Source: Raillietiella orientalis (lineage: Eukaryota). Taken from it: a stretch of 64,000 nucleotides of DNA. Location of the stretch: assembly GCA_036172245.1 (NCBI GenBank), contig JAYWIR010000014.1, positions 992,001 through 1,056,000 of the forward strand. Direction: 5' to 3'. Position 1 is the stretch's first letter; each line of letters starts with the position of its first letter. The notes under the pieces are model-generated. The model made no database searches. It worked only from the letters and a program-made list of their open reading frames with translations, and was not told the DNA's origin. Shown piece after piece: positions 792-42,699 of the stretch. A program made the translations under genes and the position numbers.

Positions 792-1060
792 GGGGAGTAG
801 GGAACGCCTTCTGGAAAGACTACCATCCAGAGAGTCGAGATCCACTCGGAGCTTGTCGGGAAGTCCGAAGGCGCGTTCCTCTCGGCACATTCCGATCCGG
901 ACTGCAGGGGGCTCCTGAAACACGTCCCGTTAGCTCCTGCCGCCGGATTCCAAGGCGACGTAGGCGATGCGAAGAAACGGGTCAGCCGATTCCTCGTCAG
1001 CCTGCAGGGTGCTCCGAGTGTTTCCTCGGAAAAGACGAGGACGCATAGGAATCCGTCGCT
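792..1060 (-). repeat. 269-bp tract, inverted identical copy of 9589-9857, inside a degenerate non-LTR retrotransposon ORF2 fragment
   Basis: Reverse complement matches 9589-9857. The ORF track gives identical peptides in two frames (GVGNAFWKDYHPESRD...KDEDA and SDGFLCVLVFSEETLG...VPYSPVP). The flanks are still alignable but diverged. Confidence 0.95.
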
Positions 1061-1485
1061 TCCATTCCGGCAGAGTTGGTCAGCAGCATCCTTCCTTCTG
1101 TCTGGGAGGAGGACCGTGCCGAAGCAAAAGATGCTCGCGATCCGTTGCTCTGCGGCTGCGGGACCATTCCGGTTTCTCACCCCAGAGAATGGGATGGCCT
1201 TCCTGCACACCCTTTTCCCGCTGCCGCGGAGAAGAGGAGAGTGACGGACGTCACCATGCAGGCGATGGAGCGGGAAGAGGGAGGGACTTCCTTGCCAAGG
1301 GAAAAGAGCGACGAAAAACCGGGACCCCACTCACCCTCTTCTGGGACCTCCTGGGATGCGGCGGAGGTTCCTGGATCGGTCTGCTTATTCCCTGAAGAAC
1401 GAACGCGTCTCCAGCAGTATTTCCCACACCATGCGCGTCGAATAGCCGCTCCTACTGCTGTTTCCTGACGCTTCTTTGCTTGTAG

Positions 1486-2696
1486 GCGCTCGCACAGCTC
1501 GCGAGAGCCTCGTGTTGATATGCCCCCTCGTTCCGGAGAGAGGCTTCCGCCTCCGCTGCACCTTGACCCCGTCGCTCACATACGTGCTACAGAGAGGTCT
1601 TTTCAGATACCATCCCTTGGATACGGTTGTGGAGAACTCTCCATCGAGTGAATCCGTGGCCACTCCTTCGGCCTTGGCTGCAGAAAAACCGTGTCAGAAA
1701 CCGAGCGTGCCTGAGGCGACCCTCGAGGTTTCAAGTTTCGCGGGAGCTGACGACGAGCGGGAAGCGATGGCAGCCAGGATGAAGACGAGCATCCCCATCA
1801 CTGTCGTGTCCGAAAGCGACCTCCCTTACATGGGGCAGATAACGCTGGAACGCCGGTCCAGAAGGGGCAGGAAGCCGAAGAAGACGGACATTTGCCACCT
1901 TGTCTCGAAGAACTACGGAATAGAGGTGGAGCGTCTGAGAATCCCTTTGGACTGCTCGGGAGTAAACCCTCCCAAAACGAGTCACGTGCTGATATCGCAT
2001 CCTGATGGGATGCAGTGCTCCGTAAGGAAGAGGCTGGCTTCCGACGACCCACATTCCTGCCCGGAAGTCCAGCGGGAGCCACTCAACCTTTGCCTCAAGG
2101 ACCTGAGTGCAAACGCGAGGAGGGAGCGCCTCCCAGACGGCCGTTTCCTCTGCGACGAGCTCGCGGCGAAACCGCTGCTGTCTTTCGAAGCCATCCAAAA
2201 GTCTATAGAAGCTGCTCGCCTGCTGCATATCGGCGCGTTTCCCCCCTCCCCCTGTAGCAGTATGATCTGCTCCTGCTCTCCCGACAACCCGCAGGATTCG
2301 AGGACGGCGGAAGGCGGCGGTGACGTCACCATCTGCAAGTTCAAGTTCGTGGGCGGGTCGAAGCCCTCCCTGGAAAGAAAGAGGGTGCTCTCCATCGACA
2401 AGTCCGGGAATCTCTTGGTGCAAAAGAAGTGGGACGAATTGGGAAAGCTATCAAAGCTGGACTCCCTGAAGGGAGTGGTGGCGAGCGCGTCGAACGCTAG
2501 GAAACGGAAACCAACCCTCAGAGAAAGCATCGAAAGGACTTACCAGAACAAGGGTGTTCTGATTCAGACGCAGAGGCTGGAATGTCCCCAAGGATCAACT
2601 TTTTGCAAGTTCCGCCAGCTGCGAAAGTTCACTAGGTACCTATTCCGCAGCTGGAAAGATTATCTTCCCAAAGTCCCTCTGGATCCCGTGAAGTAG
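1486..2696 (+). CDS. Probable terminal coding exon (about 403 codons) of a host gene encoding an uncharacterised, probably nuclear/regulatory protein
   Basis: Uninterrupted frame ending at TAG 2694-2696. A strong 3' splice acceptor sits just upstream (CTGAC branch, gcttctttgcttgtAG at 1484-1485). Complex motif blocks: LPYMGQITLERRSRRGRKPKKTDICHLVSKNYG (basic, AT-hook/NLS-like), EPLNLCLKDL (CtBP-motif-like), ICKFKFVGGSKPSLERKRVLSIDKSGN, and TYQNKGVLIQTQ...FCKFRQLRKFTRYLFRSWKDYLP. The last block resembles uncharacterised arthropod proteins (recalled, not searched). Confidence 0.75.
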
Positions 2697-8918: not shown

Positions 8919-9495
8919 ATGGCGATCTCCTCACTTAACATGCTGACTCGTGAATCATACTGTGCTCAGAAACTGCTAGAGAGCTTCTGTGTCTGCAAGA
9001 GACCCACGAGACGGGTGACCAGATCTGTCCCCAACTCGAACGGCACCTGGACGCCCAACTGTTCCTGGGCCCGGGCGAGAACACCAAGGGCGTGGCGATC
9101 CTCTTCAAGAAAAGGATCTCGCGCACCGTCCTGGAGGTCCTCACTACCATCTCCCTCTTCATCATGAGCATCGTGGTAAGAAGGGAAAAGATGTGGAACC
9201 AGATGAACAGTGTGACGGCAGTGAACATCCTCAAAGGACTCGTGAATAAGGAAACAAGGACCAGGAACTGTGGACGCATCCACGCTGGGATTTACTGTTA
9301 CATCCTGCAAAGAATTGAGGAACTCACCCAAGTGAGTCGAATCCCCATAAGAATCCAGTGAAGAATACCCCATTCCCGAAGAATACCCCTGAACTCAACA
9401 AGCAAGTGACACTCAGTGACACTTAAAAAAGTCTGTGAAAGTGAAAGCGATCAATAGACTGTTGTAATATTGAAACTTAAAGTTGTAAAATAAAT
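8919..9495 (+). mobile_element. Internally deleted Tx1/L1-like non-LTR element: APE N-terminus fused to ORF2 C-terminus, plus 3' UTR
   Basis: MAISSLN, then (frameshifted) ELLCLQETH...NTKGVAILFKK, which are APE endonuclease motifs. The frame continues to YILQRIEE...stop 9361, then an AT-rich UTR with AATAAA at about 9488. Confidence 0.75.
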
Positions 9496-9499
9496 TCAC

Positions 9500-10620
9500 C
9501 CCACCGCGAGTCGGACTGGAGCGAACTGATGAAGAGCTGCCTACATCCAGAAAGGCTGGATGCATCCGGCCAACTCTGCCTGAATGAGAGCGACGGATTC
9601 CTATGCGTCCTCGTCTTTTCCGAGGAAACACTCGGAGCACCCTGCAGGCTGACGAGGAATCGGCTGACCCGTTTCTTCGCATCGCCTACGTCGCCTTGGA
9701 ATCCGGCGGCAGGAGCTAACGGGACGTGTTTCAGGAGCCCCCTGCAGTCCGGATCGGAATGTGCCGAGAGGAACGCGCCTTCGGACTTCCCGACAAGCTC
9801 CGAGTGGATCTCGACTCTCTGGATGGTAGTCTTTCCAGAAGGCGTTCCCTACTCCCCGGTTCCTCGTGAAGTCTTTCTTAGCCAATTCCGTATTGGTTTC
9901 ATCCTCAGAAGAGGAACGAGAGCAGAAGAGAAATGGTAGATCACGACGTTTGTGCAGCAGCAACTGTGCCCCGGATTCAAATCGCCATCTGTGCCTCTTT
10001 TCGCAGGAGACACAGAGCTCGGAAAACCTTCTGAATGAGGCCTCAGCTGGGCATCCATAGATCACTGTGAGGAAGAGTCGCCTCCTTCCACGCGGCACTG
10101 GGGATGTAGGGAAGAGAATGGACCCCAGGGGGTGTTTCCCTAGTCGTCAGAAGAACGCTCTTGTTGCTTTCTCAAGGAGTTCGGTGGAGCGCCGTCGGAT
10201 GCTGTTGAAGAGCACCGCAGGCTTCGAAAAGCACCCGACCACAAATCGTGGGTTAGAGGCGTCACTGAGGATCTTCAGATACGCGGATCTCATCTCCCCC
10301 GAGATCGACTCTCTCCGGTGCCGACCGAAACCCGTCTGGAAACAGGTGAGCGGAACACCACTCGCCAAGGTCCTCCTTGGAAGGGTCTGGTTATCTCCAT
10401 CATTCTCCACCGCCATTTCATGTGCAAAACACGGAACTTCCCCCGTCTGAACGTTGAGCTCGTCTGAAACTCGTCCCAAAGAGACACTTCATAAGGAACT
10501 CTCCTCTCCTTCTCCATGGGCAGCTGTGCCGCCGAAAGGATGATGGAAATCCTTTTGATTTCTGTTTTTTCTGCCTTCCTTCCAGTTTTTATTTTTTTTC
10601 GGGTCTTCTTTTTTTTTTGG
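9500..10620 (+). mobile_element. Degenerate non-LTR ORF2 post-RT/C-terminal fragment containing the second copy (9589-9857) of the 269-bp inverted tract
   Basis: Homologous to about 760-1100 (-). Weak ORF2-like peptides (RFFASPTSPW; LRCRPKPVWKQV), then a T-rich tail. Confidence 0.45.
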
Positions 10621-17300: not shown

Positions 17301-19100
17301 TTCCTTTCGTATGCTGCCCCTAACTGTGGCCACCTTCCTCGCGAAATCGACTGACGTGTCGAAAAAATCTCCAGGACGACAACTGGGGGGGAGGAAGAGC
17401 AACAGAGAAGGTGGACTGGGAGACGGAAGAGATCTTGCTTTTTCGGATAGCAGGAAGGGATGGGACGGGGTGTACGAGTGGGGAACGCCCGGTCTTGAAG
17501 GAGCAGGAGAGCGAAGGAGGGGAGGGACCGGAAGAGGAATTTCTTGCCTCCTTCGAATGGCCTAATTTGGGGGAGTCATCTTAGCTGCCGCGAGGATCGA
17601 CCCGAAGGACCTAGGAGCCTAGGGGTTCTGGAATCCTTCCAGAAATGCAAGATGAGAGTCAGGACCAGGTGCGTGACGACTTCCGGCCGTGGTCGATCTG
17701 ACTTCACGGAAGCACGGCCGGAAACATCAGCAAGACCGGAAGTCCAACTTCCGCTGCAACGCGGAGTCCGCTCTCCCGCCGGCCCGTCTCCTTAGCGACG
17801 CTGATGGGAGCGAGGCGATGGAACGATAGGCATCGAGATTGCCCGGAGGAAGACAAAGGTGGGGGAGACGCGTTTCCGGTATCTCTTCCGATAGCTCCGG
17901 CTCCGTCTGCAGTCATTCCGAACTTGCCACAGAGCTGTGGAGGATGGGTGGACGAAGGACAGGGACTGTTCCATCACACTTAGCACGGAGAAGGCACTGC
18001 AAGAGACGAGCAGACAGATCAGGCCCCTCCCTCGTTCGAGTGGCCTCGACTGAAGGTCTTCCTTTCCGAGGGAACGGCAGGGGAGGCGGTGTAGACGAAG
18101 GAAGGAAGAGGGGAGGAGGAAGAGAACGTGGGAAAGAACACCCTTAGACGAAGGAGCGCTACTCTTGCCCTCGCGATTTTCGAGTATGAAGCGCGGTCGG
18201 CGCTCTTCCTGGAGGTGGAGAGTGAATGTCAGGGCGGTTCCCAAGGGACCGCTTTCCCTCCTTCACCCGGAGCGCCCGCTCTTTGGAAACCCGAGGGACA
18301 TCATCGTGCTCACGACCTTGGGCGGTGACCCACTCCGTGGACTTTCTTCCTGATTCCCCCTCTCCTTCTCCTACGGGTCTAGTTTCCTTCTTCAGCTGCT
18401 CTGCAGGCGACCGCAGGAATGCCAGCTCAGAAGGTTCCTCTTCTTGCCGGGAGATGCCACAAGCAGTCTACAGCGCCTGCGCGGCACGTAAGCTGCGGAG
18501 CGCTCCACCTCCGAGCAGGCTGCGCCGCACTCAAAAAGGGCGAGCCCAGATAGTGTGGCCCAAAGAGGAAGGGAGGGGAGCCTGAGGCTCTGGGGCCTCC
18601 CATCTGGCCTGCCGTCCCTTCGAGGGTTCGGATGCGCCCTGTTCGGCCCAGGTCACGTGTGGCAATGAACGGGAACGGGGAAACCCCCTGTTCGCGTCCC
18701 TTTCCCGATCAAAGACGCCGCTCCTTCCCGGATGCTTTCCCGAAGGGTGTGCAGGGAAGGGGGTCTGAGTTGAAGCTGTGAGGGCGAGCGAGTGCCCTCT
18801 CTGCTCCAGCGAACGACTTCCTGCCCTCGCTCTGCCCGCGTCCGGGCTGACTCCCTCCGAGAGGCTGCCGTTGCGCCCCGCCGCCATCAATGTCACCGGG
18901 AGCTGGACAAGGATCTCCTCTCGCGTGACCTTTCATCTCCATCGGAACTCTCCTGCCTTTTCTCCCGGTTGGGAGGCGCGCTCGAAAACGAGACGTCGGT
19001 CTGCTTCCTCCAGGAGGATCGGGGCACTCCGTCTTCTCGTCCCGTCCCTGTGCTTCAGCCGCACAGGGACGACCTTGGAGCTCTTTTCCGAGCTCCAAGG
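14400..19100 (-). mobile_element. Cluster of highly degenerate non-LTR fragments (APE, thumb and Cys/His C-terminal remnants)
   Basis: Scattered motif remnants (LEDARRIPVTFSH; NILWMQ...HCP / TIAHLVPF) with many frameshifts and stops. Confidence 0.35.
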
Positions 19101-22100
19101 TCGCCCAGCGACCCTTCGTCCCATGTTTAGCCGGAGGAAAGTCGTCCCAGTCATCACCCTTCTCCTCCTCTTCCTCCCTCTTCCTTTTCCAAAGTCCACG
19201 GTACTTTTCCGGAAAAGCTCTTCCCGGCCCTCTTTCTGTGCAGTCGGTCCGAGAGCGGCGCTGCTACTGCTGCTACTGCGGACGGGTCCTCTGGGAGAAA
19301 AGGGGGGTGGGGGCGGATGGTGCATGGCCCTGCGCCAACGACGACCGCTGACAGAGAAGTGGGGAGGAGGAGGAAAAAGGAAAAAGAGAGGACGCATCTG
19401 GGAATCTCCCTGGGATGCGGATGTGCAATGCATAGGCGCCGCCAGCGGCTTCCGGATGCGTTGCGGGGCAGGCTCTCTCGCGGAGGGATGGAGGAAAGAG
19501 ATGGGGTTGCCAAACCCTCACCAGGATGTTACTGGGACGTCACCGGAACCCCTGAAAACTCCGGTCTGCTTCGAAACGAGGGTTCTCCGGGCCATCCCTC
19601 GCAATCGGAGAGGCGAACATGCCTGCCCTTCGGACTGCCTTTCCTGTTACTCCCCGATTCGGAGGGAAAGCCAAAAGGGAAGGATCCTCTGTGAGAACTT
19701 GGGCTCAATTGGGGCACTCCTGTGGAGCGTGCGGAGGCCCCTCCAGGCCGTCGGACTCTCTCCTCCGCACGTTGGACACCAACGACGAGGTCATGAGCCC
19801 CGCCTGGAGGCCCATTCCTGCGGACAACGGGCATCCTGAACCTGTCCACGAGCCTCGTTTCTCCCGGCCAAGGAGAAACTCCGTCGTCAAACGAGGAAGA
19901 TTCCCCGCTTGCATCTTCTGCCTCGCGCCGTCGCGATCACCATCGGGGCAAGCCCCCTCCAGCTCGCACAGCCTCCTCTAGTGAGATCGTCCTTTCACAC
20001 GACCACCTCCCTGTATTGGGCCTCTCGGCTGCTGCTGAGGCCAAAGAGGCAATCGCCATCCGCTGTGAAGGGCGAGAGGTTTCCTTCCTCCCCCCTTCCC
20101 TAGGAGACGGAGAAATCACGGAAGCTGGGGGGGAAGGAAAGAATCCCAAGAGTGCGTTGACTCCAGAACTCTTCTGCTCGCAAAGGGGGGAGAAGGGGAA
20201 TGCTAAGGCATCCCTTCGGGATTAGCAAAGCTTTGGTCATACGATCCTTCTCTGGTTGCCGAGAAACAAGGTCCCACCTTCTCCAGGGATAAACCTCCGT
20301 CACCCTCGCACCGCGGACGAGCGCGCCGATCCCAAGAGGTCGCATGCGTTTCTTCCTGAACGTTTTGGAGGTGGCGGCTCGTGAGGGAAGAGGGCAAGGG
20401 GGGAGGAGCGAGAAGGAAGACCTGGACTCCTGGGAAACCATTCCCGGTTCTTTCTCCTCAAGAGGAGGATCGAGCGGACGATGAAAGTCGTTGAGGGAAG
20501 GGGGATAAGCCTGCTGCCTTCCTCATTTACCGCTCTGCCACTCTCACTCTTCACAACCGTCACGGCGGTGGCTCGAGTTACTTTGCGTGACTGCGCACGG
20601 GAGATGAACTCCCGAGCGCGAGATGCCGGGGAAGGGATGGACGGGTCTTCCCGCGTCCTCATGCGATGCCAGGCGCGGGGGGAATACGCGACCCACTGGC
20701 TGTAGCTTCCGGGCGCCTGCGTACATGCGTACAGACTCTGTCGACCGGGCAACAAGACCACGTCTTCCCCCTCCCCCCCCCCTCATGACGCCAAGGTCCC
20801 CCAGCCCGGACAAAGGACTCTTACAATTCCTCTCTCCTTGTCCCCTGTCCCGAGCCCGGAAGGAAAGAAAGCTCACAAGAATCCCTCCCTTCCTGTCCCA
20901 CTAGCGCGGTAGATCCCCTCCAGGAGACCTCGCGATTCTCTCCTCTTTTCTCCTCCGCACCGCTGCCATGGCAACTCCAGAACTTTTCTCCCGGTATCGC
21001 TCGTTTCGTTTGCCTCTCGCGACTAGAACTTTCCCCGTTTTTCCCCGATTCCAGGAAGGTCACGCGTCTTGCACTCCGTCCGGCTTCCCGCGGTCTCTAG
21101 GGTGACAGCTGGAAAGAGGGAGTCGGGAATTGATTGAGGGAGACGGCTCTCGGGACTCGGCCCCCCAAGGAGCAGTGAAGCGCGCGAGGTGATGGGGCCA
21201 ATCCCCAAACCATTCCGCAGATGGCAACTTGGATCGTCTTCTTGGGAACCCTCCCGTGGAGGAGAAAGTCGCTCCCTGGAGGGGGTGCTCGCCGGTCAGA
21301 TATCCCGGGAAAGAGCATGGCAGTGGGAGGGAAGAAAAGGAAGAGATGGGGAGAGTCTTGGGGAGATCAGGAAGGGAAGATCAAAGCCCTAGGGATGCAA
21401 GAGCGAGCTCCAGGGCCTCCCGCAACGCTGGGGGTCGCCTAGGAATCCTCTTTTCTCGGATAACCTTCCTCTTTTTCGAACGTTCAGCTATGGTGGGAGG
21501 AGCTAAGTCGCGGTTGGCCACATCCCTCAGTCCGTGGAGCACAGAACCTCCTGGGCGCCACGGCAACGCTACCAGGCAGGCAGGGAGTCGGAAGCGACGG
21601 CAGTCGCGGTCCGGCAAGGGGCACGGGCTGGGCGTCCCACCCTCTCAGAGGCTTTCCCGAGGGTTTCATTTCCCCTCGAAAGCCGGGAAGGGAGTGGGGC
21701 GTCGCGTTCTACCTCTCCCGTCTCAAGCGCCCGTTCCCCTGACAACCCCCGCGGGTCCGGAAGAGATCGCGCTCATCCCCGCGCGCCCGTTCAATTAGCC
21801 GGGCGTTCGCCCCTCCGTGGACACGCGCGGGCGATTCGGAGCGTGGCGAGGAGGGAGAGGGTCTCTTCCTTTCCTGATCCCCGGGGCGCGTCCGTCCTCT
21901 CCCAGGGGAGGAGTCCGTTGCCCTTGAGAGCTGCCCCCTCATCCGTCTCCCGGGGCGCTCAGTCGGGCGACAGGAGGCCTCCACAGCCGCGGCTCCAATC
22001 AACCGAAGTCCCGGAAAGGGAAAGTCAGGAGGCAGGGACCGAGAAACAGCCTCCGGACTTCGCGGACTCGCGACAGAAGCGGAACGACCCACCAGTGAAC

Positions 22101-31260: not shown

Positions 31261-34200
31261 ATTTGTCTTTAAACCCTGCGGAACGTGTGCTCCTGGGTCG
31301 ACGACCCAAATGTTCCCACGTTCCCCTTTTCCTCCCCCTTCTTCTTCCTCCTCCTCCTCTTGGTGTGGTTCTCGTTTGTTTGCCTGCTTGCCTGCTTTCC
31401 CCTCTCCCTTTTGCTTTCTGGCTGCCGTGGCAGTCCTGCATCCGCCAACTGCGCAGCGCCCGCGAACCAGCGAAACGCCCGTCAGGTTCCTCAAGAGGGC
31501 TGCTAGATGGCGAGAGAGGCGACAGCAGCGCAAGGCTGCCGTCCCTCCCCCGTCCTCTCCCGACTCGCGGAGAGCGATCGGTTCCGATCGCCCTCGATCC
31601 GCAGCGCTTGAGCGCCTGCGGCTCCATTGTTCTCGAGTGGGAGTTTCCAGGAGACGGATGAGGTTGAGAAGCTCTGACGGTTCCTCAACGTCTGTTTCGG
31701 CCCCCTCAACGGAGCGTCCAGGCCGGCAGGCGGGACGACGGCGGCGGCAAGAGCGGTTTCTGGGTGGGGGGACATCCCGGAAGCGAAGGCGCTGCCACCG
31801 CCGGTGCAGGCCAGCAACGAGAAAAGCATCTCACGCGTTCCTCTCCAGCCGATGATCGCGGCCACTCATCGGGGAAAATGGGAAGGGGGAGGGAGAGGGA
31901 GAGGGAGGAGCGCACGCCCATCTCGCGCGGGGATCCCGAACGCGGAAACGCGTGCCAGCGGAGGCATCACAAAATTCGCGGCTCAGCTCCCCGGATCGAA
32001 GTGGAGACCCCCCAAATCCCCGCACGGCATGCACGCCACCCTTCTACCACTGCCGCCCTCCAGTCCGGAGAGGGCGTGCTCGCCTCGCGTTGGACTACCC
32101 TCGACCACAGAGGTGCCCGCGCATCCCACTTCTGGTTCCTTCCGTTCGCCGGCTTCTGCACCGCCGCGGATGTTCTGCAGCTGCCGCGCATTCCTCTCCG
32201 AGGAGGCGGAGACAGGACGCTCTTCTCCTCCGCCTCCTTCCTGGGGGACCGTCCTTTCGAGGGGGGTCGGGGGAATGTGCCCTCCGGGGAGGTTTGCGCC
32301 GCTCCAGATAATCAGCAGCAGGTCCGGTTCGCGCGGACGGGAACGGCGGCGACTTCCACCAACTGAAGCCGCCTCCGACAGACTGCTCTGGCGTGCCCGC
32401 GCGTTCCCGACCTCCCTGCTGCAGCTGCTGTCAGACCCTCGAGAGCTTTAGGGTTCGTAACAAGTCGAGGGCTCGCGGGAGGGCGCAACTCTGCTCGGGT
32501 GACCCTTTTCCTCCGAATCAATTCCTCTGTGATGCGGAGTAGCCTTCCTCCCCCCCCCCCCACAGAGGAGGACCCTTCGAGGAACAGAAGAGTGGAGGGT
32601 AAAGGAGGGTCGAATGCTGCCTAGTCCGGAGACGGCTGCTCGCACAGGTGCGAGACCTCTTACGTGGACATCCTGCTGACGCTCCTGCGGGGGCGATAGC
32701 CTAAGCACCTGTGCGCGCGCTTCATGTGCACAGGTGCCCCGGAATCTCGCCTCGTTTTCTTAGGAGTGTTCGCCTCGCCGTCGGGTGAGAGGATGCACCT
32801 CCTGGCAGGAAATGCAAGGGGATGGGAGAGACGCTTCCGAACTCTGCAGCTGTTCGGCGGGACTCTCCCGTGTCTTCTGTGAGACTGGGCTGCCCGCTCG
32901 CCTGCAGGGTCGAACGGGAAGACCAAGTTGCCTCCTACCCGGTGAATGGGAGGGTGCTCTTACGAAGGTCTCCTTTTGACGGTGGAGGGTTCAAACTTGG
33001 GATCCACGGCGACCGTGGGACTGAAGAACCAAAGGAGGAATTCGTCCTGAGGAAAAAAGCTTCTGGGGCCCTCGATATGAAGCTTAAACCACGTGACGAT
33101 GGTGGCGATGAAGAGAGAGGAAGAATAAAAGAAGAGAAGGAGGTGGAAAGAAAAGAAAGTGGACGACGATGAAGAGAAGAGAGAGCAATGTGGGAATATC
33201 CGTCTTCCGCGAGTTGCCATGGGAGCTAAGAACAGGGACAAAAATGGACTCCTAAAGGCGACCATCGGGGCGGGAGGGAGAGCATGAAGGGCTGAAAGGG
33301 AACGGACGCGGTAAGTGTGGCTCGATGAATTTGCCATTCCAGGATCGTCTTTTCATGAGCAGCTCAGGCGCCTGTTCCACGGCTTGTCAGGAGAGGGACG
33401 GGCCCCAGGATACAGGGACCGAGGAGAACGCGCATCATCTGGTCAGGCAGGGGCAAGGGAGGGGGAGGCACGTGGGTTGTCTCATCCTCTGGAGGCACGT
33501 CCGTGAATGCAAAATGGTCTTCCTCCTCCTTCCCGGTAGGCTCACGAGAACATCGGATTCCCCCCTCCCCTTCTTCCTTCCATGGACGAGCAACGTGAGT
33601 AGCCGAAATGAAGTGGCAGACAAAACCTCCACCCCCCTCTCTTCCTCTGTTCTGCTTCCTAGGACCGCACTCAGCTCTTGCCCGAGATCGGGACGGGAAG
33701 CTCTGACGCGCTGCTCCGCATCTCCTAGGAACGCCCGCTGTGATATCCTGTTTCCTGCGTCGAATTTTCCCCCCACGCAGCTACGCATTTGGCTTGTGCT
33801 CGGGCCGACGTGGGTCGCGCCACCCTCAGCAGCGGCCGCTGGGAGCCGCGCCGGTCGTTCGTTCGGTGGGCACGGGTGCTGAGGGAGCAGCGGACGGGAT
33901 GGGGCGGGAGAGTCGGGAAGGAAGGAGGAGAGAAGGACGGCGTCGGCTTCCTGCAAGCGAGAGGCGGGTGAATAAAGGGCGGGTCGTTACGGAAGCTTTA
34001 GGAGGGTTTTGAAGAGGGAGGCAGGATCTGTGAGGCGCGTTCCTCACCTTTCCGTGGATGCACAACAACGCGTGCTCCGCGGGTGGGGAGCTCTCACTCC
34101 GTCCGATCCTGGACCACCTCCACTTTCCTCCTAGTGTTCTTCTCCGGTGCGGGCGCCTGGACGTCGAATGGGTGGCAACCTGCCCCCTTGTGGGGCCGTT

Positions 34201-34814
34201 CCAGCCCTCCGTCATCTCCCCTTTGAACGCCGCGAGGAGGGACGTGCGCGTCCTCGAGAGGCACCACAGCGGTGCATCCACCATTCTTCGATCTCTGATC
34301 CCCGCGGCTCCAACTTGCGCGAAAAGGCTGCTGCCTCGATGCGGCGGATGCAACAAGAGATGCAGGCTGCTGCTACTGAGGATGCTGGAGCGAAAGTCCG
34401 TCTCGTGGCAAAGTGATGCTGCGCGAGGTCTCCGGGAAGTCCTTACGGTTGATCGAGGGCTCTTGAGGGGCGTCCTTGACCCGAACGAACGGGTCGAGGT
34501 CAGAATGCAGACACTTGCGGACTGGGATCGCTTCAAGCGCTCGGTCCGGGAGTTCTGAGAACAGTTCCCTCTGCACCGACTACCTGCGGGGTATGGGGAG
34601 GAGGTCCGTAACGAGAGGATGTACCTACACGCCCGACGTTACGCAAGGACCCCCGACGTTTGCAGTCTCGCGGAGTATAAAGCGGGAGCCGAGAGGCAAG
34701 CCTGGCAATCAGGATCGGCCAGCTTGCTGGACGACCAGGGCCGGGAGCACTCAGCTCCCGCACAGGTAAAAGAGATAATAAGGAAGTTCTACTCCTCCCT
34801 GTACGAGAGAGCGC

Positions 34815-35025
34815 CTAATACCAAACGCAAAAACTGCGATTCTAAGTAGCGATCAGAAGTCGGTTGGTAACGTCATTGACTTAGTATTGAAAAAAGAGGT
34901 GAACATTATAATTGGCACACAGATAATTGCTAAAGGGCACAATTTTCCCAAATTAAATTTGGTTGGAGTAATTAATGCAGACTCGGGCCTTGAAAATTCT
35001 GATTTGAGAGCAGCAGAAAAGACAT
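34815..35025 (+). pseudogene. priA: Horizontally acquired internal fragment of bacterial primosomal protein N' (PriA helicase), Wolbachia/Rickettsiales-like
   Basis: AT-rich island with the open frame LIPNAKTAILSSDQKSVGNVIDLVLKKEVNIIIGTQIIAKGHNFPKLNLVGVINADSGLENSDLRAAEKT. This matches the PriA helicase signature IGTQxxAKGHxFPxxxLVGVxxAD...DxRAxE. No start or stop codon. The Wolbachia-like assignment rests on recalled similarity and composition. Confidence 0.92.
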
Positions 35026-35052
35026 CCCGCTCCGGCTCCGGAGCGGGATGTC
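35021..35052. repeat. Perfect 15-bp-arm palindrome at the right priA junction
   Basis: GACATCCCGCTCCGG-CT-CCGGAGCGGGATGTC. Confidence 0.97.
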
Positions 35053-35824
35053 GCGCGACTCCTGCTTCCGAAAGGCGCTCCAGCGCTCGAGGAAAAGGAG
35101 AGGAGTCACGATGAGCCTTTCACGGCAGGTGAGATCATCACCGCCATCGGAAGGCTCAAGAGGCTTAAGGCTCCAGGAGGGGACGGCCTGCCAGCGGAAT
35201 TTTTTCAAAGCTCCAGAGCTCACTCCCCTGGTACAGAAAGTCACCTTGCTGATCCGCGAGGCAGGCGACGTTCCCGCCTCGTTTCGCTCGGCAAAGGTGC
35301 GTCTCCTTTCCAAGGGAGGAGACTTACGGAGCCTGGGCAACTGGCAGCCGATTGCCGTGGTAAACACGGACGCAAAGTTGCTAGCGAAGTTGTGGACTGA
35401 GCGTTTGGGACGGTTGGCGGAAAGTTTCATCAGCCTGGAGCAGTTCCCGGGCGAAGCATGGATGTTAACCTCTTTCTCGCCAGCACCTGGTTCGTGCTCC
35501 ATCATGAAAGAGACAGGATGGGCAACCGAAATTCCGGAACGTCCGTTGGTGGGGAACGGGATGATTAGGAGGGGAGGGAGCCCTTGCGGCCGCAGTCGAC
35601 TTGCATAAAGCATTCGACTGAGTCGACCAGAGACTCCTTCTGGAGCTCCTGGAACGCTTGGGCTTCCCGGCCTCTTTGATCTCTTTGATGGACTACTTGC
35701 GCTCCTGCTGGCGCGACGCGTTCATCCAGATCTCTTTCAGTGGACACATCGTGTACAGTTTACTGGTACGACGCGGCATACGGCAGGGCGACAGCCTGAA
35801 CCCTTGTTCTTCCTCTGAGAGCTG

Positions 35825-36110
35825 TTTTTACACCCGGGTGCGCCGGGGCGTTTATTTTTTAGTAAAAACAAACAAGCAAGTGTAGGGCTATTGCTCCTAC
35901 AGCGTCCTAGAAAATGTTCTAATAAAGAGTCTGAAATTGCCGAGTAGCAAGCACGCAGGCTGGCGAGTTCGACTCGGCAGCGGGAGGGAAAAGGACAAAT
36001 AAAAACAAAAAGACAACACTATTTACAAAAGCAGGGAGGAGTTGGGGAAGGGATCACATTCCGCGGGAGTCGTCCTCTATATCCTTTCCAGGATGCCGGC
36101 AAGCTGTTGG
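35825..36110 (-). mobile_element. 3' end of a Tx1-like element (copy B)
   Basis: On the minus strand: cttgccggcatcctggaaaggat...gtgatcccttccc, a U-rich tract, hairpins, then AATAAA-CGCCCCGGCGCACCCGGGTG-TAAAAA. Confidence 0.8.
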
Positions 36111-38108: not shown

Positions 38109-39419
38109 AGGGGGGGTTGAAGGGAAAGGACGGCCAATGCCCTGCGCTGCAACGCAGCAGCACTGTGGATGCCTCTGGGTTTGGGTTACGGATGAGAAAC
38201 CCGCAGCTTCCTTTTCGCTTCCGGAGTTCTTGGGTAGGGTAGGGGGACAGTGAGACCGGCAGCTTGCCTGCTCTGCAGCTCCGAAGCGATTAACCCGTCC
38301 TTCTCACGGAAGCAGCATGAGTAGGAGGGGCATGGAGGTCCTCCAAGGACGGGGTAGGCCTTCCTTGCGGCTGTCCCTAGGATGGAATCCGTGAGACGCG
38401 GCGACCTCGGGAGGCGTCACGTGACGGTAGTCGAAAAGGTCGATGTCGTGGCCCACGGAAGGATTGGGGAGCGCGAGTGCGGGCTGCTTACCGCGCCAAG
38501 GCCGCTCGGCGTGGCGCTGCAACAGAAGTCGCGGGTTCGAGTCCGCGTAACGGAGCCACTCGCAGCAGCAAGTGCTCGTTCGCCACCGGTGCCTCCACCT
38601 TCTGGGGGTTCAGTTCCCCGGTGGCGAACCGCGGGAGCGTTCTCGCGTTCGTGGACCCCACTTAGTCTGCAGACTCTGGTGGAGGTTCTTGGAGCGAGCG
38701 CGGAGCGCGCGCACCTTCCAGCTGCTGCGCGGCAGCTTCAGGGGTGAGTCCCGGGGTTTCTCACTTCTTGTGTTTTTTTTTCTTTACTTTCTTTCTTTTC
38801 GCTGCTGCTGCCTCTGTCTTCTCCCTTTCTCTTCCCCCAGGCTCGGGAGGAGCACAGCCTTGTCAAGAGTGAGCTGCGCGCGCACCAGCCGTTGTCTTCT
38901 GCCCTTCGAGGCACAGGTTCGCCGGCAGTTCTTTTTTGTTTCCCTTCGCCGGCCACGGATCAAACCGACTGAGAGGATTCCGGAGTGCGCCCGCTGATTC
39001 CCTCGTAAGGCTAGAGGCTCCTACGGGAGAAAGGAGCGTTCCACAAGAAGGGAGCGACGAAACTGCTCTTGCCCTTTTTTCCCTCAGGAGGAGAAGAGGC
39101 ACCAAGGAGGAAAGCGGGATGGTGGCTGGGATCCGAGATCTTTCATCCCGGACGGAGGCCGTTCGCATAAAGTAGATAAATGAGAGGAGCCGAAGAAGGA
39201 AAGAAAGGGGGGACGGGGGTTCACATCGTGCCCCTGACCGAGTGAATTCAAAAGGGGGGTGGTCCTCATGTGCTGGGGAGGAACGTGGACGGGGAGCAGG
39301 TTGGTCTTCCGACTCTAGTCACCCCGAGGGCCAGAGCCGGGAAGAGCAGGAAAGGGAGGACCCTTTCAGAGGCTCTGGGTTCCCTTCTACCAAGAAGTCC
39401 CTACCTTCAACTGCCTTTT

Positions 39420-39680
39420 CGCGCAAGTTGGGGTCGCGGGGGATCAGAGATCGAAGAATGGAGGATGCACCGCTGTGGCGCGTCCCTCCTCGCGGCGTTC
39501 AAAGGGGAGATGACGGAGGGCTGGAACGGCCCCACAAAAGGGCAGGTTGCCACCCATTCGACGTCCAGGAGCCTCCACAGGAGAATACTAGGAGGAAAGT
39601 GGAGGTGGTCCAGGATCGGACGGAGTGAGAGCTCCCCAGGCGCGGAGCACGCATTGTTGTGCATCCACGGACGGGTGAGG
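39420..39680 (-). mobile_element. Close inverted homologue of the APE C-terminal segment at about 34050-34320
   Basis: The peptide HNNACSA.GELSLRPILDHLHFPPS.L...LDVEWVATCP.VGPFQPSVISPLNAARRD is shared, with a short deletion here. Confidence 0.9.
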
Positions 39681-40120
39681 AGGAAACGCATTTCGCAGAT
39701 CTTGCCTCCCTCTCCCCATTCTCACCCAGATGCAAAGCCTCTTGAAGCTTTGTAACGACCCTCGCTGCAGTGCGGAGCTCTCCTGGCCACCTCCAAGCAG
39801 CGTCGGGGTGGCGCTACGCGACTCCCCGAGAAAGGGGAGACATCGTCCCCGTTGAGAAGTGAGATCGGCGGGTGGGGGCAGGGTGGCAAGGATCGAGAGC
39901 CAGAGGACTGCAGCCCAGCGACCTTTGCTTCTCGGATTTTTTTTCATTGCTGCCTGCGGGACATCTCCTGCCTGATGTCACTGCAGACCTCTGGACCCAA
40001 CCTCGTGGCACATTTCCCAGCATCCCTCTCTGTGGAGCTTCCGTCGCAACTTCATTTCTCCTCGGCGCGTGTATGCACATCCACTTCGAGACCCCCCTCC
40101 AATCCCAGGTTGGCAGCCAG

Positions 40121-41076: not shown

Positions 41077-42699
41077 GTCGAGGGAACTTTCCGCCACGCC
41101 CCTTAGGATGAGATGGGTCGCTGTCAACGAGTCTGAGGTCCTTGCAACTGCCGTGCAGCGGGAGCTGGGCGCCACCGCCTGCGGTGGCTCCATTTCTTGA
41201 TTCAGGTTCCCCGGGAACGTGCATATGGGGTGAGAGGAAGGAAGGAATGAGAGGCCACTCTTCCGTGGCTGCAGCCCATCCCGAAAAGCCGCCGAGTCCC
41301 ACTCGTGGGGACCTGGAAAGGCAGCACGGCGTGGCTACGGGGTGCCTGCGCGGGTATCAGCGTGCGAGCACCTCCGCGGCGGCCTCCCCATTCTGGTCTC
41401 CCCCAACGTCGTCCGCCTGCATAAAAAGCAGTCAGCCTCTTCGGCAGGACAGAAGAGGCTGACTGCTTCTTGAGGTCGCCGTAATCGCGCCTCCCTTTCG
41501 TTCAGCGGCGGCGATACTGCCCGTGAGCAAGGAAGCAGGGGGAGGGAGAACCCGGAAGACGCTGTGGGCAAAACCGCGCGTCAGCCCGCAGCCTCTCCCT
41601 CTTCCCTACCCGGCGCCATCAAAGTTCTGAGTGCTTCCTGACCCATGTACCTTTCCCCGAATTGTTTCCTCGCTGTCATCACCCCTCCTCCCCTCCCCAT
41701 GTCCGTACGATGTTTGCTTTCTTGCTCAGGGTACCACTGCCCTCCGCGCAAGAAGATGCCTCGTGCCTGCACCCTCCCTCTGCTGTCATGGACGGGACGA
41801 AAAGAAAGGGAGAGAGGGGAAGGGGGGTGCTGTGGCTCCATCTGCGGCGACCTCCCAGAAGAGATTGAGAGACATCTCTAAGGCTGGAAAAGGAAGAAGA
41901 GGAGGAAAAAGGAGGGGAGGAGGGGGAGAGAAACAAAAATGGCGGCTTTGCGTTCTTCCGCATTGCTGGAAAAAATGAAAAAAGAAGAAAAGCAAAAAAA
42001 ACAAACGTCCCAGCCCTCCTGGGATGGATGCGGAGGCAGCTGTTCCTCCGGGAATACCACCTTGGGAACAGACGGCTTGGCTCGTCCGGGAGGGAAACGT
42101 GTTTCTTCCCTCCCTGCCTCCCCCTCCCCTCCCTCTCGAAATGTGGAGCGAAAAGTAGGCGTGCCGGAAGCCCACGAGCACCTGCGTCTCCTTGCGAAGA
42201 CAAAAGACGAGCGCGCGTGCGCACTGCCGCCCGCCGCGGAGCGAGATCAAGTCCTTCCTTCTCCTCTTCCCGTCGCAGGCCGCTCGCGGCTCTGTTTCCG
42301 CCGTTCGGGGTCACCCGAGCGCGCGCGCTCCCCACCTCTCCTCTCCGCAGCCGGTGACGGTAGCGGAGGCGTCCCGCGGTCGGAGGGGCGATCCGGGAAA
42401 GGCGCGAACGCTGTTTCAAGTGCGCCACCAAGCGCGGGTGCCAGCGCACACCGTCTGGTCCCTTCGTGGTCGCTACGAGAGACCAGGGAAAGCAGCAGGA
42501 ATGGCCGCATTCCACCCACCCCCTATCCAGGAAAACATCCCTTTCCTGCCTTCCTAGGCTGGCGCGAAGGACAGCTCCGCTCGTCCCGAACGTCCTGTAC
42601 TCCAGCGTCCCGCGAATTACGGGTGCCTCTTTCCCCCCTTCGTCCTCTTTGTCTTCCCCTAGGACGAATGGCTCGCGCGGAGCCGGCGCTTTCCGCCTG

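Follow-up and report, generated by a model that had tools for sequence, protein, structure and literature searches.

The locus that we examined raises the question of how a piece of a bacterial gene came to lie within the ORF2-like RT frame of a non-LTR retrotransposon in an arthropod genome, and by what kind of DNA repair it may have been joined to its new surroundings. The window (i.e., the whole stretch of 64 kb that was analysed) had been given a first-pass annotation from its letters alone, which described an AT-rich block of 211 bp encoding an uninterrupted 70-residue segment of the helicase PriA and read it as a nuclear transfer from Wolbachia or another member of the Rickettsiales. The explanation that we favour, and that we consider probable, is that this block is a Wolbachia insert (nuwt) captured at a germline double-strand break, that its right end was joined by polymerase-theta-type end joining, and that it has decayed neutrally since. 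The features that enter the argument are collected in Table 1.

Table 1. Positions of the features discussed, in coordinates of the window.
Feature	Position	Strand	Description
Conserved arthropod/insect protein frame	1446-2693	+	416 codons, coding-like codon-position GC, no Pfam family
RT (ORF2-like) non-LTR relic, left part	34724-34816	+	ends ..FYSSLYERAP; tblastn with P0121 residues 1-31, 58%, E 1.7e-07
Wolbachia priA fragment	34816-35023 (outer limits 34815-35025)	+	208 bp, part of the helicase C-terminal lobe
Right-junction filler	35024-35037	+	14 nt, read as templated; neither Wolbachia sequence nor sequence collinear with P0121
Perfect inverted repeat	35021-35035 / 35038-35052		15-nt arms, 2-nt spacer; found by hairpin scan and also by self-blast
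RT relic, right part	35038-35846	+	PERDVARLL.. to ..GIRQGDSLNP; tblastn with P0121 residues 32-293, frames +1, +2, +1, +3

The composition of the block clearly sets it apart from its surroundings, with a GC content of 0.385 at 34800-34999 against 0.59-0.62 in the flanks, and of 0.370 over 34815-35025 (background 0.58-0.62). The frame that begins at 34815 runs through 70 residues with neither a stop nor an indel, and the other two forward frames contain 10 and 7 stops. The encoded peptide matches two PriA profiles of NCBIfam: NF004070, where its residues 2-70 align with positions 505-577 of 729 (E 1.8e-24), and TIGR00595 (E 2.2e-19). The scores of 86 and 69 bits, respectively, fall far under the full-length cut-offs of 921 and 230 bits, which is to be expected because the piece is only 70 residues long. 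Solved PriA chains match residues 29-69 (E 1e-06), and Pfam yields only a sub-threshold match to Helicase_C, which scores 19.8 bits where the cut-off is 23.5 (E 0.00099). An AT-rich block with an uninterrupted PriA segment of 70 residues is, therefore, indeed present. Its extent had been described less exactly: the Wolbachia homology lies within 34815-35025 at most, but the best matches cover 34816-35023 and the DNA that is extra to the host element amounts to 221 nt (34817-35037).

In what it retains, the insert resembles PriA closely, as residues 2-70 align to the C-terminal lobe of the helicase in TIGR00595 and NF004070, including the conserved GTQ..AKGH.FP. It differs from the replication-restart helicase in holding only about 70 of about 650-730 residues, and in having no start codon and no DNA-binding or zinc-binding domains. 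Full-length PriA relatives measure 640-860 aa and carry six Pfam domains. The parts by which a complete PriA is recognized (N-terminal DNA-binding domains, both lobes and a Cys-rich region) are not all there, the Wolbachia homology ending at 34815/16 on one side and at 35023/25 on the other. The insert is a gene fragment, not a gene. That it matches Wolbachia by chance is contradicted by the best blastn alignment against Wolbachia loci (E 1.6e-86) together with a 71-nt priA core that occurs once in the window and in none of 100 shuffles.

The donor can be named to genus. Our search of 5.8 billion proteins with the peptide gave 573 candidates, of which 512 were PriA matches at E <=0.001; among the best 120 of these that were listed, identity is 86-93% and the named ones are nearly all Wolbachia PriA, the exceptions including records under the host names Drosophila ananassae and Trichonephila clavata and one 'Rickettsiales bacterium'. 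A survey of prokaryotes with one genome per species revealed 127 stretches that encode a relative, 80 loci of which were retained. Protein identity to the insert is 74-93% for the Wolbachia loci and 61-71% for those of Anaplasma, Ehrlichia, and Neoehrlichia. In DNA, the insert is 75-93% identical to 23 Wolbachia-type loci over about 205-211 nt, and only two of these alignments need gaps. Loci outside Wolbachia (other Anaplasmataceae and other bacteria) give partial alignments only, at 79% DNA identity or less. Because full-length alignments of 75-93% are thus set against partial ones of at most 79% elsewhere, the assignment of the donor to the genus Wolbachia can be considered secure by sequence comparison. 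This agrees with what had been predicted for a BLAST search of 34815-35025, where the best matches are to Wolbachia PriA for both protein and DNA.

Which Wolbachia lineage was involved is less evident. The nearest locus is that of the Wolbachia of Cantharis cryptica (L001), at 93.3% identity (14 mismatches in 208 nt and no gap), followed by L010 (91.3%) and by L008 and L002 (both 90.4%), all ungapped. These four nearest loci encode full-length PriA proteins that are closest (92-97%) to proteins whose source labels read 'group A'. However, the maximum-likelihood tree of 210 nt contains no supported clade that includes the insert, and AU tests, for groups that were named after the tree had been seen, reject none of the placements (A-like, p 0.41; B-like, 0.17; F-like, 0.09; D-like, 0.09). 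The supergroup assignment that the first-pass annotation had anticipated is consequently obtained only in part: the insert appears nearest to supergroup-A-like strains, which is the limit of these data.

The sequence on either side of the fragment is recognizable through P0121, a metagenome protein of 619 aa with a Pfam RVT_1 domain in its precomputed annotation, which begins with LLDDRGQEHS..FYSALYARSPPERSFSRLLLPDGAP. It is 74% identical to the window over 35198-35443 and is the sole relative of the right flank (35198-35608) in the word-indexed database. Residue 31 of P0121 maps to 34814-34816 and residue 32 to 35038-35040, from where the right part reads PERDVARLLLPKGAP.. onward. Residues that are adjacent in P0121 are, therefore, 221 nt apart in the window (34817-35037), and not one host residue is missing. 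P0121 itself does not contain the insert and aligns without a gap once all 221 nt are removed. The element had been reported to be split between ..FYSSLYERA and PAPERDVARLL..KAPGGDGLPAEFF, and both flanking peptides are found at these places. The accompanying claim that removal of the insert restores the ORF2 frame is right in substance but not with 211 nt: the last codon of the left RT frame is at 34811-34813 and the right frame begins at 35026, and either 212 nt (34814-35025) or 221 nt have to be taken out.

The interrupted element is far from complete. It covers residues 1-293 of the 619 of P0121; its frame shifts near 35198-35214, 35443-35450, and 35571, and an in-frame stop codon interrupts it at 35619-35621. 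When 150 RT-like proteins served as queries, they produced 197 HSPs, 196 of which lie in 35017-35846 and the remaining one in the left part, and these queries found no RT-family match upstream of 34724 or downstream of 35846 in the window. Since all 197 HSPs are confined to these two stretches, the element has no endonuclease and no distal part of the RT. Direct Pfam scans of the broken RT ORF pieces gave no RVT match at E <=1. An endonuclease, a full RT and an open frame, by which a complete element would be known, are thus all lacking, and judged from its sequence the interrupted element is a short decayed relic of a non-LTR retrotransposon. Closer copies of the element than P0121 were not obtained: a metagenome scan with P0121 gave 7 loci with 22-61% identity over short stretches, none of them usable, and among 40,601 matches of a HMMER search against 1.84 billion representatives the next best after P0121 is only 34% identical. 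The named clusters among the top ten relatives of P0121 are those of a turtle, an alga, and a pseudoscorpion record and are uninformative on the host, and an Atlas search with P0121 returned generic RT clusters only. The retrotransposon lineage to which the relic and P0121 belong is barely sampled in public data.

The chromosome that carries this relic is that of an arthropod, marked as such by the insect-type gene at 1446-2693. At E <=0.001 the frame has 359 relatives; of the 120 that were listed, all those with a name come from insects and are 'uncharacterized' proteins, e.g., of beetles, butterflies, and flies (best E 7.8e-45). The matches include those to Bemisia (identity 36%, query coverage 70%) and a flea (33% and 69%), and the top three Atlas clusters are arthropod. 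The frame probably represents one large exon of an arthropod gene that is conserved but has no assigned function. Its host is most likely an insect, of which no close relative has been sequenced as far as this gene is concerned. Otherwise the window contains few recognizable genes, with no Pfam family in its 122 ORFs of at least 150 aa and no Rfam family; tandem repeats were uninformative. The window has a GC content of about 0.58, a CpG o/e of 0.86, and a strong depletion of TpA (o/e 0.43), an unusual composition for an arthropod. Its CpG o/e and GC content are also unlike those of Wolbachia. A vertebrate host, which came into question because the best named relative of P0121 is a turtle record, is rejected on the CpG o/e of 0.86 and on the insect-type gene.

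A comparison of the window with five Wolbachia genomes, in four overlapping pieces that cover 1-64000, found the priA fragment (34816-35023/25) as the only Wolbachia-like DNA in the 64 kb, and the other pieces gave no match at all. It follows that this is not a bacterial contig that was joined to host DNA. Within this assembly, GC-rich, non-bacterial sequence extends for 34.8 kb on one side of the insert and for 29 kb on the other, and the RT relic is continuous across the insert. The argument of the first-pass annotation that collinear host sequence on both sides speaks against contamination is borne out to that extent.

An artefact would nevertheless account for bacterial DNA in host sequence if a chimeric read, a chimera of whole-genome amplification or a mis-assembly had brought in Wolbachia DNA of an infected specimen. 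Chimeras that arise in amplification often bring inverted segments together by way of short microhomologies. An artefact, however, would have had to create two precise junctions only 208 bp apart and to restore the collinearity of the host element to the codon. Moreover, the insert is at most 93.3% identical to any sampled Wolbachia and has changes at invariant residues, neither of which is expected of a living symbiont, and no further bacterial sequence is present in the 64 kb. We therefore regard an artefact as very unlikely. A nuclear transfer from Wolbachia, as proposed in the first-pass annotation, is supported by the protein (86-93%) and DNA (75-93%) identities, by the collinear host element across the insert and by the insect-type gene in the same window.

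Both junctions can be followed base by base. On the left, the host sequence ..GCGCC is followed by a T and then by the Wolbachia sequence AATACC..., and this T (34816) fits both host and Wolbachia, leaving a microhomology of 0-1 nt. On the right, identity with Wolbachia stops at ..GAAAAGAC (35023), and the filler separates this point from the host frame. The first 12 nt of the filler (35024-35035) are the exact reverse complement of the 12 nt of host sequence at 35038-35049, and they form part of the longer inverted repeat given in Table 1. The left arm of this repeat begins with GAC, the last three nucleotides of the Wolbachia piece, so that the boundary between Wolbachia and filler (35023|35024) falls within the arm and divides it into 3 nt of Wolbachia and 12 nt of filler. 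The overlap of GAC is a candidate 3-nt microhomology.

Perfect hairpins of this size are rare here. With arms of at least 10 nt and loops of at most 10 nt, the window contains five distinct ones, three of which have arms of at least 12 nt; a hairpin with arms of 12 nt or more occurred in only 1 of 20 simulated (Markov) windows. The DNA fold of the junction site has a free energy of -18.6 kcal/mol (z -5.22), a value reached by none of 200 shuffles. We calculate a probability of about 1e-3 that any of three such hairpins would come to lie over the right junction. The two other long perfect hairpins are located at 19070-19103 (14-nt arms, 6-nt loop) and at 41426-41468 (17-nt arms, 9-nt loop).

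An inverted repeat that spans the junction is the sequence signature of snap-back SD-MMEJ, and it is present at the right join. In the account that Yu and McVey (2010; PMC2943611) give of this process in Drosophila, a broken end primes on a nearby inverted repeat and copies a few bases, the new 3' end is then used as microhomology to the other end, and the product is an inverted repeat across the junction that is made up of the net insertion and the flanking sequence. The same source describes fewer insertions at repair junctions in mutants of mus308 (polymerase theta).

It is also conceivable that the insertion is genuine but was made by ordinary end joining, and that both the inverted repeat and the 14 nt at 35024-35037 belonged to the retrotransposon from the outset, with no templated synthesis involved. 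The absence of the 14 nt from the collinear alignment has to be read with the fact that P0121 is a remote standard of comparison, with an identity of only 58-74% in this region and of 58% over its residues 1-31, and ORF2 linkers vary in length; read in the frame of the element, the 14 nt give Pro/Ala codons, two to four more than in P0121. The hairpins at 19070-19103 and 41426-41468 show, in addition, that perfect hairpins occur elsewhere in the window. Yet P0121 aligns gaplessly with all 221 nt removed, the left arm runs 3 nt into the Wolbachia piece, for which the chance is 1 in 64, and hairpins with arms of at least 12 nt number only three in 64 kb. Native origin of the repeat seems, therefore, rather unlikely to us, although it is the most serious of the alternatives.

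Capture at a double-strand break with polymerase-theta-type joining would have proceeded as follows. Wolbachia DNA, probably released by lysed bacteria, would have been at hand when a germline double-strand break arose in the already inserted and truncated RT fragment, between the codons of ..YERAP and PERDV. About 12 nt would then have been copied in inverted orientation from the host sequence just to the right of the break (snap-back synthesis), and the new end may have paired through the 3 nt GAC with a free priA fragment of Wolbachia of about 208 bp. For this right join, alternative end joining of the polymerase-theta type is the probable pathway. The left end would have been joined simply, with an overlap of 0-1 nt, and little or no host sequence would have been lost. 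The order of these steps, and whether copying took place in cis or in trans, we infer from the end product. A loop of 2 nt is sterically awkward, which disfavours a strict snap-back in cis, and copying in trans or in several steps is possible.

The capture of short DNA at breaks has well-known parallels in organelle DNA. Mitochondrial DNA is described as integrating through non-homologous end joining at double-strand breaks in a publication that also deals with Wolbachia inserts (PMC3798261). Like NUMTs and NUPTs, the insert described here is a short cytoplasmic fragment whose uptake cost the target few bases or none and left 0-3 nt of microhomology at the junctions, but its donor is an endosymbiotic bacterium, not an organelle. 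With snap-back SD-MMEJ and polymerase-theta-mediated end joining with templated insertions (PMC2943611; Kent et al., 2016, PMC4912351), it has in common the junction-spanning inverted repeat and the short microhomology. It differs from them in two respects: junctions obtained in the laboratory come from induced breaks in a known starting sequence, whereas the starting sequence here is deduced from a relative that is 58-74% identical, and the putative templated tract (12 nt plus the 3 shared nt) accompanies a captured foreign fragment.

A different route would lead through RNA, the RT having switched template to a priA transcript and back again during retrotransposition, in which case several copies might exist. 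RTs of LINEs switch templates and make snap-back products, and the sense strands of priA and of the element do coincide. An RNA intermediate has also been raised as a possible route in nematodes, in a paper on nuwts (PMC3849323). However, the RT would have had to return to the very next codon of its original template, the captured piece is an internal gene fragment that contains no transcript end, the insert is a single copy in the window, and P0121, the one close relative, does not have it. We consider such an origin highly improbable. We attach just as little probability to the wider scenario in which the priA piece entered an active retrotransposon lineage, e.g., through template switching by the RT onto a Wolbachia transcript, and was copied around the genome in many dispersed copies. 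If this were true, a LINE family would be carrying a piece of a bacterial gene along with it, and its dispersed copies would have both junctions in common.

If the priA fragment was captured at a break, as we favour, it would have been functionless from the start, an internal piece of 70 codons with no start, in a third frame inside a dead element, and would be drifting as a pseudogene. The substitutions in the insert are compatible with this to a degree. Of its 210 positions, 16 are different in the Wolbachia of Cantharis cryptica, and it has five bases that are present in none of 21 Wolbachia. Four of these five unique changes are nonsynonymous (I>L, E>K, T>N, and L>S), and three are at columns that are invariant in all 21 Wolbachia, as are 42 of the 70 columns. 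The terminal branch of the insert (0.073) is several-fold longer than those of its nearest neighbours (0.014-0.02), which fits pseudogene drift. However, the surplus of nonsynonymous changes does not reach significance (4:1, compared with 27:28 for the Wolbachia lineages, Fisher p 0.20, or 0.28 after the three longest rows were dropped) and, consequently, part of the divergence could derive from an unsampled donor lineage and not from decay.

The first-pass annotation considered the insert to be probably younger than the decayed host element on the ground that its own frame is still intact. That reason has no statistical support: the RT relic has about four disabling lesions in about 810 nt, which by our calculation corresponds to about one in a stretch of 210 nt, and that the insert has none is unremarkable. 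The relative age itself stands, since the insert interrupts the element and is younger than the arrival of the element, unless both moved together.

The transfer as such is ordinary, as Wolbachia DNA in arthropod chromosomes is well documented. Two publications on the subject put the share of projects with Wolbachia transfers at about 20% for the sequencing of arthropods and nematodes (PMC4299567), and the share of genomes with Wolbachia inserts at about 33% for the arthropods that had been sequenced by 2007 (PMC3798261). The insert shares with the nuwts of Drosophila ananassae and Brugia malayi that it is Wolbachia chromosomal DNA in a host chromosome, that it is non-functional and that its surroundings are rich in repeats. 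In contrast to these, it consists of a single 208-bp piece of one gene instead of a multi-kilobase or whole-genome insert, both of its junctions are base-resolved, and it lies in DNA with a GC content (about 0.58) that is high for an insect. Among the open-access papers that targeted searches on Wolbachia and lateral transfer combined with end joining or microhomology brought up, none mentions a junction-level analysis of a Wolbachia insert in its title or abstract. What this locus adds is a pair of base-resolved junctions in a sequence of which the uninterrupted form can be deduced, with a right join that is typical of polymerase-theta-type repair. If confirmed, it would offer a clean natural example of the entry of endosymbiont DNA into the germline of an insect. 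It also testifies to a former infection, the lineage in question being nearest to supergroup-A-like strains. There is a practical side as well, because a priA relic of 208 bp can give false Wolbachia-positive results in PCR or read-based screens of the host species.

Some further features of the window deserve mention. The region at 56-59 kb has a lower GC content (0.44-0.46) and no match to Wolbachia. A frame of 135 aa at 8954-9358 (+) shows the strongest coding-like contrast between GC3 and GC2 in the window; its N-terminal ..LCLQETH.. looks to us like the start of an apurinic-type endonuclease of a LINE, and none of the 150 RT-family proteins matched this frame at E 1e-4. Two frames on opposite strands, at 801-1241 (+) and 9480-9848 (-), share the same first approximately 87 residues (GTPSGKTTIQRVEIHSELVGKSEG..), which indicates an inverted repeat whose two copies are separated by about 8 kb and may mark the ends of a mobile element. 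A second pair of inverted copies, at 34013-34328 (+) and 39413-39713 (-), is 85.7% identical over 321 aligned nt and brackets both the RT relic and the Wolbachia piece.
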